Origin: a virus
Taxonomy: Duplodnaviria; Heunggongvirae; Uroviricota; Caudoviricetes
DNA length: 14,423 nucleotides
IMG/VR virus record: IMGVR_UViG_2531839179_000017
Reading direction: 5' to 3' (one strand)
The notes beneath the pieces were generated by a model. That model was not told where the DNA came from. It did no database searches and was given only the letters and a program-made list of their open reading frames with translations. The position numbers were made by a program, and so were the translations under genes. Shown one piece after another: positions 8,770 through 14,423 of the stretch; positions within the stretch are counted from its first letter, which is position 1, and each line of letters starts with the position of its first letter.

Positions 8770-8975
8770 TGCCCACCTCTACCCACTTTTTTCGCCCACT
8801 TTTTACGTTTTCCCACTTCGTCCAACGTGGGAAATTTGGGATTTATATCATCTTGTTTCATAGGTATTTTTTTAGTGCCCACTTTTTGGGATATATACAC
8901 GTGGGAAAGTGGGTAATTTTGTTAAAATTCCGTTAAATCGCCCACCTTTCCCACTTTTAATGCCCACTTTTTACA
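8770..8975. repeat. Iteron cluster with AT-rich spacer: putative replication origin
   Basis: At least nine direct copies of a CCCAC(T)nTTT-type motif (for example GCCCACTTTTT at 8794, 8877 and 8962; CCCACTTTT at 8782 and 8950) plus inverted copies (GTGGGAAA at 8827 and 8901), interrupted by AT-rich stretches at 8838-8876; immediately 3' of the replicative ATPase gene. Confidence 0.7.
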
Positions 8976-10371
8976 GTGGTCCTACATCATCACCGTCAAT
9001 GTAGATCACGTCGTCTTTTTCCAGTTTGGCTAACCATCGTTTAAGGTGTTTTGTGTCATACCCCAGCTTTTTCATATCGTCACGTAACAGCGGGATCGTG
9101 CACTTGTCGCCGTGCTGTGTGCGTGAACGTATGCATCCCCATAGCGCGGTATGGTTTTCCGTCTTGTTGCCTGCCTCCTCGATGCGCTCCAGTTCAACGG
9201 GAGGGCGCGGCTTATCCACCACCACCAGCGACGTGATTAATTCACCGTCAGCGTCGGTAAAAAGCTCCACCACGCGTAAGTCATATGCGGCTTCTTTGAG
9301 TTCCTCCGCGTCCTTCATTTTGGTGCATGAGATAACCAGCGCTTCGCTTCCTGCGTCCTCCCTGCGTATCCGGTATTCAGCATCCAGCGAAGCACGAAAT
9401 GCACTGGAACCGCGCGCGCCTTTCGTCTCATCCTTGCCGGAATGGTGAACCACCAGCACCGTGGCCCCTGTGCGTCGTTTCAGTTCGTCACAACCACGGA
9501 TAAACGCCCCCATATCACGGGAATCATTTTCATCATTCCCACCAAAGCAACGCGCCAGCGTATCCAGAATAATCATGCGTACAGGTTTACCCGTTTCCCG
9601 CTCCACCTGACGGGCAGCGATAACCATTTCATCAACATCAAGCGGGGCAGCCGGAAAGATGGGGCGGTTTACCAGATACAGATTTTTCACCTGCTCATCG
9701 TGCACAACCTCCCAGGCTTTTACACGACGCGGAACACCTATACCGCCTTCACCAACCACATAGAGAACCGCACCATGTGCAACCCTGCGGCCTCCCCACT
9801 GGCGACCAGTGGCAACATGGCACGCCCACGATCCGGCAAGGAATGATTTATAGGACCCGCTAGCCCCGTATATGCTGCATAGCGATACCGCCGGAATAAT
9901 CCCCTTAACCACGTAATCCAGTTGCGTGTCGTATCCGGTAGATCCAACGCTCATCGGTAGCGTGGTTTTTCGCTGGTGGTTTTTTTCTTCCGCCGGCTCT
10001 TTCCCGCGCACCCGTTCCAGGTATTCGCGCCAGTTCTCCCGCATATGGCTGTGCATCCCTTCGGGGTAATAATTCGCATCAGTTACACCCGCCGCCGCCA
10101 GCTTGTGCGCAATGGCATTAATATTTGATGGCCTGATGTGGCCTGCCTTGTACAGCCGGACACAATAGCGCCCCTCGTCGATGATTCTCAGGTCTGCCAG
10201 TTCATCCAGTTGATCATCAGCCAGCACAACGGGAGGCACATTATCGCCAGCCAGTCGCCCGTCCTGTTCCTGCCACTGTTTCGCATGTGCCCAGGCATCA
10301 CTACCCGCAAAAATAATGACTTCGGTCATCTTGTCGTAAGGCTGTTTTTTTAAGTTCGGTGCGCTTTTCAT
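8971..10371 (-). CDS. Replication initiator ATPase/helicase (RecA-like, AAA_25/RepA-type) with C-terminal winged-helix-like region
   Basis: 466-aa ORF, ATG at 10371 overlapping the upstream stop (ATGA); Walker A GASGSYKS, Walker B-like RMIILDTLARCF, conserved VLVVHHSGKD...GARGSSA block typical of RepA/DnaB-like RecA-fold replicative ATPases. Confidence 0.8.
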   Translation of the reverse strand: MKSAPNLKKQPYDKMTEVIIFAGSDAWAHAKQWQEQDGRLAGDNVPPVVLADDQLDELADLRIIDEGRYCVRLYKAGHIRPSNINAIAHKLAAAGVTDANYYPEGMHSHMRENWREYLERVRGKEPAEEKNHQRKTTLPMSVGSTGYDTQLDYVVKGIIPAVSLCSIYGASGSYKSFLAGSWACHVATGRQWGGRRVAHGAVLYVVGEGGIGVPRRVKAWEVVHDEQVKNLYLVNRPIFPAAPLDVDEMVIAARQVERETGKPVRMIILDTLARCFGGNDENDSRDMGAFIRGCDELKRRTGATVLVVHHSGKDETKGARGSSAFRASLDAEYRIRREDAGSEALVISCTKMKDAEELKEAAYDLRVVELFTDADGELITSLVVVDKPRPPVELERIEEAGNKTENHTALWGCIRSRTQHGDKCTIPLLRDDMKKLGYDTKHLKRWLAKLEKDDVIYIDGDDVGPL

Positions 10372-11343: not shown

Positions 11344-11764
11344 GGTGTACCCCTCCGCATTTTTTTTCGTTAGAAATAAGCGTTCTTCTTTCCTGTTCAT
11401 CGCTCAGGAATACGCAGACCTCACCGCTAAGGCGTTTAAGTAAGCCGATGATTGCCCCTGATTCGCTGTCGGTCATCATGCCAGGGTAATCCTCTGCCAG
11501 TGCGCAAATAACTTCGATTTGGTGGGCGCGTTCTGCTGCCTGTTGTAGTGTGATTTCCTGGCTCATAAGCCTACCCCCTTGGCGAATACGGGCAGCGAAT
11601 ACCATCACGCAGCCAGCCGGGGATTGCTGGCGTGCTTCCTGTTCGCTGGTGGCCTCAATGGTAATCACGCGCGGTTGTGCCGTGCTCAGGGCGATAAAAC
11701 GCCAGATGTATTTATTCAGGTTGTGCGAGCCCCGCCCTTGCGGGTGTGTGGTATGATTTCTCAT
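11333..11764 (-). CDS. First gene of the early operon; N-terminal Icd-like (cell-division-inhibitor-like) region plus C-terminal helical domain
   Basis: Start chosen at ATG 11764 (GAGG 6 nt upstream); the track's longer ORF starts at a TTG inside the operator. Motif YIWRFIALSTAQPRVITIEATSEQEARQ...VFAARIRQ matches my recollection of Icd-like proteins of P4-type elements (unverified). Confidence 0.5.
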   Translation of the reverse strand: MRNHTTHPQGRGSHNLNKYIWRFIALSTAQPRVITIEATSEQEARQQSPAGCVMVFAARIRQGGRLMSQEITLQQAAERAHQIEVICALAEDYPGMMTDSESGAIIGLLKRLSGEVCVFLSDEQERRTLISNEKKCGGVHHVQ

Positions 11765-11861
11765 AGCTACCTCGATACTTTCGCTATCGTTGGTGGTTAG
11801 AAGCCCGGTTAGTGTTAGCGCACTGCCGGGTTTCGTCGTTTCTGCACCTTGCGCCAACAAG

Positions 11862-11913
11862 GTGTTGAACACCAATTTAAACCCAGGTGTTAAACACGTC
11901 AAGTGTTGAACAC
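11862..11913. promoter_or_regulatory. Triple palindromic operator (GTGTT-N-AACAC) spanning divergent promoters
   Basis: O1 GGTGTTGAACACC (11861-11873), O2 GTGTTAAACAC (11887-11897), O3 AGTGTTGAACACT (11902-11914). Minus-strand promoter candidate: -35 TTGACG (11902-11897), 17-bp spacer, -10 TAAATT (11879-11874), with O1 at the start site. Plus-strand promoter candidate: -35 TTGAAC inside O3, -10 CATACT (11928-11933). Confidence 0.65.
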
Positions 11914-11962
11914 TTATTTTTTTCCTGCATACTGCATTTGTTTTTTATGAGGGGTACACCAC

Positions 11963-12142
11963 ATGGCGACAAAAGCAGTAAACGCAAAATCACAAACCGT
12001 TGCGGCAAGGGTTCCGCATGAAGTTATGAACAATGTTGAGGCGGTAAAAATGCCTGGCGAAAGTACGGGGCAATTTGTTACTGCAGCATTAAAACGAGAA
12101 GTTGAATATCGCCAGCGGCGCAAGGCCAAAGAACCAGAGTAA
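11963..12142 (+). CDS. Small ribbon-helix-helix-like DNA-binding protein; candidate repressor
   Basis: 59-aa ORF (absent from track, under 60 aa): MATKAVNAKSQTVAARVPHEVMNNVEAVKMPGESTGQFVTAALKREVEYRQRRKAKEPE; GAGGGG 8 nt upstream of ATG; beta-strand, helix, G-x-S/T turn, helix pattern typical of Arc/MetJ/CopG folds; divergent from the early operon. Confidence 0.5.
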   Translation: MATKAVNAKSQTVAARVPHEVMNNVEAVKMPGESTGQFVTAALKREVEYRQRRKAKEPE

Positions 12143-12199
12143 TCACCATCAGCGCCGTGGTGTAAGGTATTACGGCGCATTGCTATGCAGGACAACACA

Positions 12200-12373
12200 A
12201 TGACCGATAAAGAATTGACCAAAACATTATCACCGGCACGGAAAAGACGGCGCAGAAAGATAGAACATGAATCAGAAAGATTCGCGCCATGTGCTTTTGC
12301 CCTTGAGCAATTCCTTAAAGAGTACAGGGAAAAGCGCTCATTGCAGGTATGGCAACGAACTGAACCAGACTGA
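12200..12373 (+). CDS. Hypothetical small basic protein, second gene of the divergent unit
   Basis: Start chosen at ATG 12200 (MTDKELTKTLSPARKRRRRKIEHESERF...) with AGGA 8 nt upstream; the track start at 12185 lacks a well-spaced Shine-Dalgarno. Followed by a plus-strand terminator. Confidence 0.45.
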   Translation: MTDKELTKTLSPARKRRRRKIEHESERFAPCAFALEQFLKEYREKRSLQVWQRTEPD

Positions 12374-12468
12374 TTGCATTGCCCACCAGCCTGATAGCGG
12401 CTATCATCCCCGTGCTTATGTTTGGGATCACACACACAAACGGCGCAGCGGGTTATCTGTTCAGAAAG

Positions 12469-12496
12469 GCGGCTCCATTTCGGGGCCGCTTTTTTT
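12469..12496 (+). terminator. Rho-independent terminator of the plus-strand small-gene unit
   Basis: GCGGCUCC-AUUUC-GGGGCCGC (8-bp stem including one G-U pair) followed by U7 at 12490-12496. Confidence 0.65.
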
Positions 12497-12642
12497 ATGC
12501 CTGAAAAACCCCAATTTTGTGGTTTTCCAGTCTCACCAGGGCGAACGAATCCCCGCCCACGTTCTGGCGTATATTCAATCTTCATGGTTATAGCTCTGTG
12601 TTCAGATGATTGATGTGTGGCGGCTGTGTGCCGCCAGCGTGA

Positions 12643-12831
12643 TTAATGAACTGCCTTGCAGCTATCCTTCCAGGCCAGAACCTCGGATAAAGACCAGCCA
12701 ACGGAACGACCGCCAAGTTTACGACGTGATGGGAATTGTCCGGCCTTTTCCAAGCGGTAGCGGCATGAGCGGCTAAGGCCTGTTAGCTTTTCGCATTCTT
12801 TTTCACGTATAAACCGATCAGTGCTTAACAC
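12643..12831 (-). CDS. alpA: AlpA-family phage regulatory protein (HTH; excision/derepression activator-like)
   Basis: 62-aa ORF: REKECEKLTGLSRSCRYRLEKAGQFPSRRKLGGRSVGWSLSEVLAWK matches the AlpA/prophage CP4-57 regulatory protein pattern; first codon is GTG at 12831 with AGGGGG 5 nt upstream. Confidence 0.8.
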   Translation of the reverse strand: MLSTDRFIREKECEKLTGLSRSCRYRLEKAGQFPSRRKLGGRSVGWSLSEVLAWKDSCKAVH

Positions 12832-13205: not shown

Positions 13206-14423
13206 TTATTTTCTTCTGGCTACTGGTAGCGTGGTTACGTTTTCATGTGTTCCCGCCAGTATCCCTAACCGCTCCGTCCACATATCCAGCGCATTGCGTT
13301 TAGCATCCAGATAACGGGAATGATTATAAACTCGCTGCATTCCTGGCATCTGGTGGCCTGTAAGCTGCTCCACGACATGCGGATCAACGCCTAAATCGTT
13401 CAGCATGGTTGTAAAGGTGCGCCGGATGTCATGCAGTGACCAGTGAGGATGATTAAGCCTCCTGTGCGCTAATCTTCCATACTGCGATACGCTGGCCTCC
13501 TGTTTCACTTCCCCCAGCAATAAGCCCGTGTGCCTGTTCTGCTCCACCAGCTGCGTGACGAACGGCAGGATCGCTTCCGGTATGGGCCGGAATATTGCGA
13601 CCTTCGTTTTGCTGTGCTCCTTCGGAACGGTCCATAGCATTTCCGTGAAATCCCACTCCCCGATCTCCGATAACCTCAGTTCTACCGTTCTGGCTCCGAA
13701 GACAATCAGGAGGCGGATTAACGCGACGTAGTAAGGGGAGAATATTTTTTTGTCCAGTGCCTGCAATAATTCGCCAAGTTCTTTGTTACTTAAGACACGT
13801 TCGCTTATATCCGGTTTTTTCCCAACGTCCGCCACGTTCAGATCGTCCAGAACGTTGCTGATTGCATAGCGCCGCCTACGGCAGAACTTAAGCGCCTGTT
13901 TGCACGCCTGTAGCACGAATCCGGCAGTAACAGGCGTTCGCTTTGCCACCTGGTCAAAACAGGCCAGCCAGTGCCGTAGCTCGCATTTATCCAGCGGCAT
14001 AGCACCAATCTGCTGTATTACGTGATTATTAAGTCGCCTTTTCAGGGCGATATAATCCACGCGGTTTTCCTTTACGTAATACTCAAGCCAGTAGGTGAGC
14101 GCATCGCCAACCGTTACCGGCTTTAACGCTTCCTGTACGGTGTAATTAAGCTCATGACGTGGATTTTTCCCCTCTGCCAGCCATGCGCGACACTGGGCGG
14201 CTTTTTCCCTGGCTGATTTCAGGCTCAGATCAGGATAACTTCCCAGCTTAATGCGTTCGGGTCGTGTCTCCCTTCCCGTTCCGGCCCTGTATGTGAAATA
14301 CCAGGTCAATTTCCCTGATGTTAAATATTTCACGCTCAGGTTTCCGCCATCACTATAAAACGTGTTTTTCTCCGCTGGCTTACCATGAAGTTTCCTTAGC
14401 AAGGTATCGCTCAGTTTGTTCAT
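13206..14423 (-). CDS. int: Site-specific tyrosine integrase (P4/CP4-57-type, N-terminal arm-binding domain)
   Basis: 405-aa ORF with ATG at the last window base (14423-14421); N-terminal DUF4102-like region (KLTWYFTYRAGTGRETRPERIKLGSYPDLSLKSAREKA), C-terminal catalytic region with HDIRRTF...LTGHQ...RVYNHSRYL (R-H-R-Y signature). Confidence 0.9.
   Translation of the reverse strand: MNKLSDTLLRKLHGKPAEKNTFYSDGGNLSVKYLTSGKLTWYFTYRAGTGRETRPERIKLGSYPDLSLKSAREKAAQCRAWLAEGKNPRHELNYTVQEALKPVTVGDALTYWLEYYVKENRVDYIALKRRLNNHVIQQIGAMPLDKCELRHWLACFDQVAKRTPVTAGFVLQACKQALKFCRRRRYAISNVLDDLNVADVGKKPDISERVLSNKELGELLQALDKKIFSPYYVALIRLLIVFGARTVELRLSEIGEWDFTEMLWTVPKEHSKTKVAIFRPIPEAILPFVTQLVEQNRHTGLLLGEVKQEASVSQYGRLAHRRLNHPHWSLHDIRRTFTTMLNDLGVDPHVVEQLTGHQMPGMQRVYNHSRYLDAKRNALDMWTERLGILAGTHENVTTLPVARRK

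Follow-up and report, generated by a model that had tools for sequence, protein, structure and literature searches.

The window analyzed here, all 14,423 nucleotides of IMG/VR virus record IMGVR_UViG_2531839179_000017, is an Escherichia coli phage satellite of the capsid-forming type of phage-inducible chromosomal island (PICI). In Gram-negative PICIs AlpA is the activator, and a global repressor has been described as 'unclear' (PMC6092414). Two short open reading frames (ORFs), ORF1 and ORF2, are the sole plus-strand genes within the satellite's minus-strand array, and they lie antisense to a long minus-strand frame that we term the bridge ORF (Table 1). A sequence-only reading had placed the two ORFs between an operator region and a strong terminator; all of these features are present, and family matches and codon tests mark both ORFs as more than chance. 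Its description of both ribosome-binding sites as good holds for ORF1, with a Shine-Dalgarno GAGGGG at 11949-11954, 8 nt ahead of the ATG, and fails for ORF2, whose CAGGAC is moderate. A literature search returned no paper describing this cassette in PICIs or giving it a role. Here, we present comparative evidence that ORF1 is probably an operator-binding repressor of the divergent operon, and describe the unusual antisense frame in which its gene is nested.

Table 1. Features of the ORF1-ORF2 cassette and its surroundings, in window coordinates.
Feature	Position	Strand	Details
RepA-type helicase	8971-10371	-	
Icd-like gene	11567-11764	-	first of leftward operon; NF033153 67 bits vs cut-off 25; phrog_6196
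SymR-like cis-antisense small RNA (predicted)	11765-11845	+	opposite Icd-like Shine-Dalgarno/ATG and leader
Putative operator O1	11861-11873		GGTGTTGAACACC; at ~+1 of PL, directly downstream of the -10 at 11874-11879
Leftward promoter PL (promoter scan)	11874-11902	-	-35 TTGACG, 17-nt spacer, -10 TAAATT
Putative operator O2	11887-11897		GTGTTAAACAC; in PL spacer, abuts PL -35
Putative operator O3	11901-11915		AAGTGTTGAACACTT; overlaps -35 of ORF1's own promoter
Putative ORF1 promoter (by eye)	11906-11933	+	-35 TTGAAC, 16-nt spacer, -10 CATACT
Antisense bridge ORF	11914-12585	-	223 aa in the window; shadow frame of ORF1/ORF2
ORF1, candidate repressor	11963-12142	+	ATG to stop, 59 aa; YlcI/YnfO-family, ribbon-helix-helix-like
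Hairpin	12152-12178	+	GCGCCGTGGTG-TAAGG-TATTACGGCGC; between ORF1 stop codon and ORF2 ribosome-binding site
ORF2, two-helix protein (model)	12200-12373	+	57 aa; basic N-terminus; core ERFAPCAFALExFLKEY
Intrinsic terminator of ORF1-ORF2 transcript	12464-12496	+	13-bp stem 12464-12494, then T7
alpA (activator)	12643-12831	-	PF05930 E = 5e-18; convergent with the cassette
int	13206-14423	-	

By sequence, ORF1 belongs to the YlcI/YnfO family. It scores 59.7 bits over residues 9-50 against NCBIfam NF041551 (curated cut-off 30) and matches phrog_949 (E = 9e-22), and an identical protein, WP_000201461.1, is named 'YlcI/YnfO family protein' by the Prokaryotic Genome Annotation Pipeline (PGAP). The family, formerly DUF3950, is exemplified by ylcI (prophage DLP12) and ynfO (Qin) of E. 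coli K-12, and a literature search found no paper giving it a function, only a listing as 'prophage-associated protein'. ORF1 and the bridge ORF have a common wobble position, and the two strands are separable only by the order of codon positions 1 and 2; a minimum at sense position 2 discriminates between them because that position is position 1 of the antisense frame. Diversity across ORF1 codons runs 0.224 at position 2, 0.335 at position 1 and 0.517 at position 3 (p = 3e-4), so the possibility raised beforehand that the antisense ORF is the real gene was not borne out: the codon positions favor the plus strand. The ratio of non-synonymous to synonymous polymorphism (pN/pS), computed over 34 distinct homologues, was likewise lowest in the ORF1 frame (0.42 vs 0.52 in the shadow frame), which also has the higher BLOSUM scores, as does the frame of ORF2.

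The G32-E33-S34 turn and R16, which lies in a predicted strand, are invariant across 32 ORF1-family sequences. A G-x-S/T/N turn opening helix 2 is a feature of the ribbon-helix-helix (RHH) superfamily, and the structural model of ORF1 fits RHH proteins; an RHH-like fold is probable. Alignments of the ORF1 profile with Arc-type RHH proteins and with K-12 YlcI by hhalign were consistent in register and below significance.

Upstream of ORF1 lie three palindromic boxes of sequence GTGTTRAACAC (11862-11872, 11887-11897 and 11903-11913), giving 7 strand matches where 0.46 were expected, a number reached in none of 200 shuffles. The first two fall on PL, which is predicted to drive the Icd-like/replication/capsid operon, and the third falls on the putative promoter of ORF1, whose spacer is 16 nt in the window and 17 nt in relatives and contains a T7/T8 run (11917-11923). 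The comparison covered 31 loci drawn from about 15 genera of enterobacteria. Most of these have ORF1 on one strand and alpA and int on the other, the leftward operon diverging from ORF1's far side; in the Xenorhabdus loci ORF1 faces alpA directly. The DNA 5' of ORF1 always contains a pair of 11-bp GTG-N5-CAC boxes at a spacing of 22-25 bp. Box 2 adjoins a conserved TTGAC (the -35 of PL) across genera, which places it in the spacer and box 1 at about +1, and this O1/O2 geometry on PL is kept even in loci without O3, whose full form is present in only some loci of the window's specificity class. A further site, GTGTTAAGCAC at 12821-12831 (-), matches with one mismatch on the GTG start of alpA. 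We take this fourth box to be a probable coincidence, since islands of other box classes have an identical AlpA N-terminus and presumably the matching 5' sequence.

The five central bases of the boxes vary among about 20 lineages in step with ORF1 residues 11-15, which lie in the predicted DNA-contacting strand. QT[VLI]AA goes with the box center TTGAA, QSLKS or QALKA with TGGCC, [KR]KLEA with TCAGC, KRFDV with TCGGA, and QKLQ[AT] with GACTC; as full boxes, the QTVAA class has GTGTTGAACAC and the QALKA class GTGTGGCCCAC. For this analysis box 2 was extracted immediately before a [GTC]TCAA anchor in 34 of 37 loci, and one mis-anchored locus (L006) was dropped. Mantel tests associated box sequence with ORF1 residues 9-17 (r = 0.40, p = 0.0005) and not with AlpA (r = 0.08, p = 0.20) or the Icd-like protein (r = 0.13, p = 0.23). 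The boxes differ in 17 locus pairs whose AlpA proteins are at least 90% identical and in 17 pairs whose Icd-like proteins are at least 85% identical, whereas no pair has a common box and three or more differing ORF1 strand residues. Covariation of the boxes with the ORF1 strand, set against none with AlpA or with the Icd-like protein, marks ORF1 as a probable operator-binding repressor, and binding of the GTG-N5-CAC boxes by ORF1 is what the comparisons make most likely. In an EDL933-type O157:H7 island, where an unrelated Arc-like RHH protein occupies the ORF1 slot, that protein has its own pair of GGTAATTACC palindromes.

Edwardsiella hoshinae (L008, 4001-4171) is identical to the E. coli window in ORF1 residues 1-57 and in all three boxes but has a different alpA, int and primase, which suggests transfer of the repressor-operator module from one satellite backbone, and one genus, to another. 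A 101-aa YlcI/YnfO protein in E. coli Nissle 1917 (L004, 2735-3040) and in L043 (1694-1999) contains two RHH-like repeats, corresponding to family-profile positions 1-54 and 19-55, and, by sequence, is possibly a covalently linked pseudo-dimer; the two boxes that go with it are mutually inverted (GTAAGC, GCTTAC).

We consider it moderately probable that, taken jointly, ORF1 represses PL through its boxes, ORF2 is an accessory protein, and the cassette is nested in an open antisense frame. Comparison across loci supports the family assignment, the RHH-like fold, the positions of the boxes, their covariation with the strand, the distribution of ORF2 and the openness of the frame; from these we infer DNA binding and repression by ORF1, and an override of that repression on induction. 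Several observations weigh against this reading. Pfam RHH models give no significant match for the ORF1 family, with PSK_trans_fac, CB_ParB_C and DUF7557 found below threshold in 2-4 of 32 members; in favor of the RHH-like pattern noted in the sequence-only reading are the invariant G-E-S turn and the model. Of the checks by profile search and structure prediction which that reading had proposed, the model matches RHH proteins, while profile searches against the Protein Data Bank linked ORF1 to no solved structure at the sequence level, and the hhalign match to Arc-type RHH proteins was weak (E = 0.017). The putative ORF1 promoter, read by eye, is a poor consensus match. Three locus pairs with near-identical strand residues differ at three or more box positions; two of them involve L015, which has a degenerate second box, and the third (L017/L033) has only the core GGAyTCC in common. 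Finally, overexpression of AlpA alone induces the PICI EcCICFT073 (PMC6092414), and any repression must therefore be bypassable or weak.

This last point also favors a different role for ORF1, in which it binds the boxes without being the main repressor and serves as an Arc-like autoregulator, as a roadblock to or source of interference with alpA read-through, or as an activator of PL. O3 overlaps ORF1's own -35 and the cassette is convergent with alpA, as such roles would have it. However, boxes at the -35/-10 spacer and the +1 of PL form a classic repressor geometry, kept across genera in loci without O3, and we regard these roles as unlikely, if a serious alternative. Less probable still is that the boxes are bound by something else, be it AlpA, the Icd-like protein or a protein of the host, and that ORF1 covaries with them by linkage hitch-hiking. 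The boxes are within ~100 bp of ORF1, tight linkage that could account for part of the covariation, and the label of phrog_6196, the Icd-like protein's match, is 'transcriptional repressor'. Linkage alone nevertheless fails to explain the asymmetry, because the Icd-like start codon is equally near the boxes (~97 nt) and yet the Icd-like protein, like AlpA, stays nearly constant in the box-differing pairs noted above; moreover, the boxes never part from the ORF1 strand class, and the changes in ORF1 concentrate in residues 11-15. For the proposal of an element-specific repressor resembling Stl of staphylococcal islands, then, strand-box covariation and the geometry on PL make ORF1 the best candidate, with an analogy to Stl that is functional and not one of homology.

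ORF2 is listed from 12185, but the ATG at 12200 is the start kept in 14 loci; indels within the gene are in frame. It matches phrog_21027 (E = 1e-15), has a lower pN/pS in its own frame than in the shadow frame (0.44 vs 0.58), and in the codon-position test, with 12 sequences only, gave no significant result. The protein is narrowly distributed: its 36 protein clusters are all named E. coli except one (Shigella sonnei), it has 9 representatives among 1.8 billion proteins, and no remote homologue of known function was found in that set of 1.8 billion. AlphaFold2 (AF2) models it as a low-confidence helical hairpin (helices 12-27 and 29-54, mean confidence score pLDDT 71). The hairpin preceding ORF2 is kept in all ORF2 loci (12 distinct), those with an Arc-type RHH gene included, with energies of -13 to -21 kcal/mol and no T-run. 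The terminator beyond it is stronger on the plus strand (-21.2 kcal/mol, z = -3.8) than on the minus strand (-14.4 kcal/mol); a simple terminator scan of the window did not list it. A role for ORF2 as a lambda-N-like RNA binder, considered for its arginine-rich N-terminus, was dropped, as the relative P0114 has its basic patch at the C-terminus.

The sequence-only reading had offered as its other option an RHH antitoxin with a partner, which would make ORF1-ORF2 a type II toxin-antitoxin pair with ORF2 as the small basic toxin, and this we now find quite improbable. Co-occurrence is not obligate: outside E. coli, where ORF1 holds its usual place in Xenorhabdus, Pectobacterium, Serratia, Klebsiella and others, ORF2 is always missing, and within its range it follows YlcI-type and unrelated Arc-type RHH genes alike at a constant 57-nt spacing. 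ORF1 ends ~9 residues past helix 2 and both types of RHH protein end within ~10, leaving no room for a toxin-neutralizing domain, and ORF2 has no Pfam, NCBIfam or PADLOC match, toxin families included. O1 and O2 would also occlude the promoter of the divergent operon and not just that of ORF1. ORF2 is therefore better described, from its distribution, as an accessory protein probably co-transcribed with the RHH gene. Nor is it true, as had been supposed, that described Gram-negative PICIs lack such a unit, since EcCICFT073 carries a YlcI homologue of the TGGCC box class with an ORF2 identical to that of the window, and the EDL933-type O157:H7 element carries the Arc-like RHH gene with ORF2.

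Some E. coli islands have tandem plus-strand units. In L005 (2677-3802), a YlcI-type RHH gene is followed by a 75-aa ORF containing FALEDFVDKY, which resembles ORF2, and then by an Arc-type RHH gene with ORF2; in L040 (1821-2946), the YlcI-type gene is followed by the Arc-type gene with ORF2, with nothing annotated between. Two overlapping long ORFs cover the minus strand there. In the window, a sigma-70-like site (12379-12407, +; TTGCCC, 17 nt, TATCAT) lies just past the ORF2 stop codon and, to judge from its sequence, could give a transcript of ~85 nt ending at the terminator; the stretch has no unusual structure (z = -1.7).

The bridge ORF had been set aside as implausible, and over ORF1 its peptide indeed appears not to be under selection, but its openness is strongly conserved. 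In a 99.9%-identical relative (L001) it spans 340 aa, in frame with the Icd-like gene; in the window, a T8-to-T7 contraction at 11917-11923 interrupts it. Many genomes have ORFs of 314-435 aa in which the frame continues, still open, into the Icd-like gene. On the minus strand, the 200 nt upstream of ORF1 contain 34 stops in the frame phased with ORF1's shadow against 198 and 192 in the others, and the 120 nt downstream contain 18 against 135 and 118; the phased frame is stop-free in 28 and 27 of 36 loci, respectively. Open minus-strand segments tile almost the whole interval between the first leftward gene and alpA, at whose stop codon the open frame has its right limit. The ATGs of the Icd-like gene and ORF1 are 191, 197 or 200 nt apart, in frame every time, in annotated E. 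coli loci with a first gene that begins MRNHTT or MLNHTT; L005, with a first gene of a different type, has 193 nt and is out of frame. Several lineages have a strong Shine-Dalgarno and ATG 8-14 nt past the alpA stop codon, just upstream of the terminator hairpin. By contrast, the shadow frame of K-12 ylcI, which we used as a control, is open over just 90 codons. The openness of the bridge frame, which reaches from alpA or an accessory gene upstream to the Icd-like gene, is thus beyond chance and strongly conserved in most lineages. The peptide consists of translated operators, promoters and hairpins and is unrelated between cassette types and elements, so selection seems, on these comparisons, to preserve translation or openness of the frame and not the peptide.

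That the long minus-strand ORF is the only real gene, with ORF1 and ORF2 as shadow-frame artefacts, is hardly credible: its stop-free run over ORF1 and flanks, its start signals just past alpA and the annotation of part of it by PGAP (as a pseudogene) are outweighed by the codon-position order, pN/pS and BLOSUM scores favoring the plus frames, by the occurrence of ORF1's curated family in other contexts such as K-12 ylcI, by the RHH-like model whose strand residues co-vary with the boxes, and by minus-frame translations that are unrelated between elements for the operator and leader as for the two RHH cassettes.

RefSeq records annotated by PGAP contain a pseudogene, 'host cell division inhibitor Icd-like protein, missing C-terminus', which is part of this antisense frame (L001 3440-3887, L003 2848-3441 and L004 2926-3405); ORF2 is unannotated in these records. 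The calls likely stem from long fused ORFs with a terminal Icd-like domain in the protein database.

At the far end of the bridge, a second predicted regulator faces the Icd-like gene. The Rfam symR model matches 11765-11837 (+) with 33.3 bits (E = 0.0044), below its gathering score of 61 and as the only Rfam match in the window, where C4 RNA gave no match at E up to 1. A U-rich tail follows the second of the two hairpins into which the predicted RNA folds (-35 kcal/mol, z = -4.6), and an extended -10 (TGGTATGAT, 11749-11757) is placed for a transcription start at ~11765. In a set of 27 loci spread over many genera, compensatory changes are seen at 15 of the 23 base pairs, and pairing is maintained at 95.8% versus ~40% in slid controls. 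We place the structure on the plus-strand RNA because many of the pairs are G-U. By these comparisons the antisense RNA is conserved and covers the Icd-like ribosome-binding site, with a structure well supported by covariation.

These elements can be assembled into a model of the switch. In the quiescent island, a dimer of ORF1 would bind the GTG-N5-CAC palindromes (O2 in the PL spacer, O1 at +1 and O3 on its own -35), keep the Icd-like/replication/capsid operon off and autoregulate through O3, and the antisense RNA would additionally cover the Icd-like ribosome-binding site. On induction, AlpA-dependent transcripts would arrive from upstream of the cassette, and ribosomes on them would run from just past alpA, or an intervening accessory gene, through the terminator hairpin and on antisense over ORF2, ORF1, the operators and the leader, in frame into the Icd-like gene. 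Translation of the bridge would prevent Rho polarity and termination at the hairpin, convergent transcription would silence the RHH gene, and read-through would bypass both repression of PL and the block by the antisense RNA. We offer this translated bridge as an AlpA-driven bypass, in which translation would be required and the peptide irrelevant, only tentatively and as a possibility that may well prove wrong. To our knowledge, no three-layer switch of such a kind has been described for any phage satellite. AlpA of Pseudomonas aeruginosa is a processive antiterminator (PMC7969949, PMC9371919), and a reporter fused to a gene named 'ORF3' in EcCICFT073 was AlpA-dependent (PMC6092414).

Beyond the cassette, the minus-strand array includes the Icd-like gene (start 11764), several small ORFs and a DUF4222 gene, and also ssb followed by capsid, protease, portal, HNH and terminase genes. 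The region is matched in 1,560 of 5,426 complete E. coli genomes. Relative to L001, the window carries three single-base homopolymer indels, each of which frameshifts one minus-strand ORF: C8 for C7 at 11132 splits a 148-aa gene, TT for T at 11579 fuses the Icd-like gene to the next ORF, and T7 for T8 at 11916-11923 truncates the bridge ORF. Sequencing error, or decay of this copy, could account for them.

Gram-negative and capsid-forming PICIs are widespread gene-transfer vehicles whose control has been understood only as "AlpA activates", and why Gram-positive and Gram-negative islands differ "is a mystery" (PMC6092414). ORF1, if a repressor, would be an operator-binding repressor of a sort previously unknown for Gram-negative PICIs, and would give the uncharacterized YlcI/YnfO family a probable function, with operator classes paired to classes of strand residues. 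The SymR-like antisense RNA has not been reported before at a PICI regulatory junction. The bridge would be an uncommon instance of apparent selection on the openness of an antisense frame and not on a protein sequence, and it offers an explanation for the recurrent 'Icd-like protein, missing C-terminus' pseudogenes as an annotation artefact.

Among known systems, the nearest relative of ORF1 in sequence is K-12 YlcI, which shows the same strand-helix-G-x-S-helix pattern. Its gene (L047 6252-6446, -; DLP12) is divergent from nohD at ~390 bp and, unlike ORF1, is not beside an alpA/Icd-like operon; next to it is a sequence that we take to be a lambda-like cos. If so, the YlcI/YnfO family would in lambdoid prophages lie at the packaging end and not in the immunity region. 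Of 50,697 phage records, a single one, a satellite-sized entry of 16.5 kb, contained the satellite clade of the family.

ORF1 resembles Stl of Staphylococcus aureus pathogenicity islands (SaPIs) and Rpr of Gram-positive PICIs in being divergent from a replication/packaging operon, with putative operators on that operon's promoter (PMC6092414). It differs from them in having no homology to them in any search, in its RHH-like model and size, far smaller than Stl, and in its orientation, which is opposite to int where Stl and Rpr have the same orientation as int. Stl and Rpr are relieved by a helper-phage protein, whereas induction of Gram-negative PICIs goes through AlpA (PMC6092414).

In architecture, ORF1 is closer to Arc and Mnt of the P22 immI region, and to CopG, omega and MetJ, with ~55 aa, an RHH topology in the model and short palindromic putative operators in a core promoter. 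The properties of Arc and Mnt are well established; like them, ORF1 is the first gene of a short operon and probably autoregulated, and an Arc-like RHH protein takes its very slot in EDL933-type islands. Unlike Arc and Mnt, ORF1 has no significant Pfam RHH match, its downstream gene encodes a 57-aa protein instead of an antirepressor, and the cassette is nested antisense in a translated-looking frame.

The leftward side of the junction recalls the immI region of phages P1 and P7 (c4-icd-ant), where a small structured RNA likewise covers the ribosome-binding site of an Icd-like first gene. Biere, Citron and Schuster reportedly found in 1992 that C4 blocks icd translation and that Rho-dependent polarity follows. 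C4 RNA is required for full repression of ant in P1 (PMC8198154). The predicted island RNA is cis-antisense from the opposite strand, whereas P1 C4 is processed from the sense leader, and the island, with no Rfam C4 match, would add an RHH repressor. In form the predicted RNA is closer to SymR of the SymR/SymE system (RF01809): although its target would be the Icd-like gene and not symE, and its score falls short of the symR threshold, it is like SymR an ~80-nt two-hairpin RNA opposite the 5' end of its target, and the two have an upper-stem motif, GUGUUnGCGCAC, in common.

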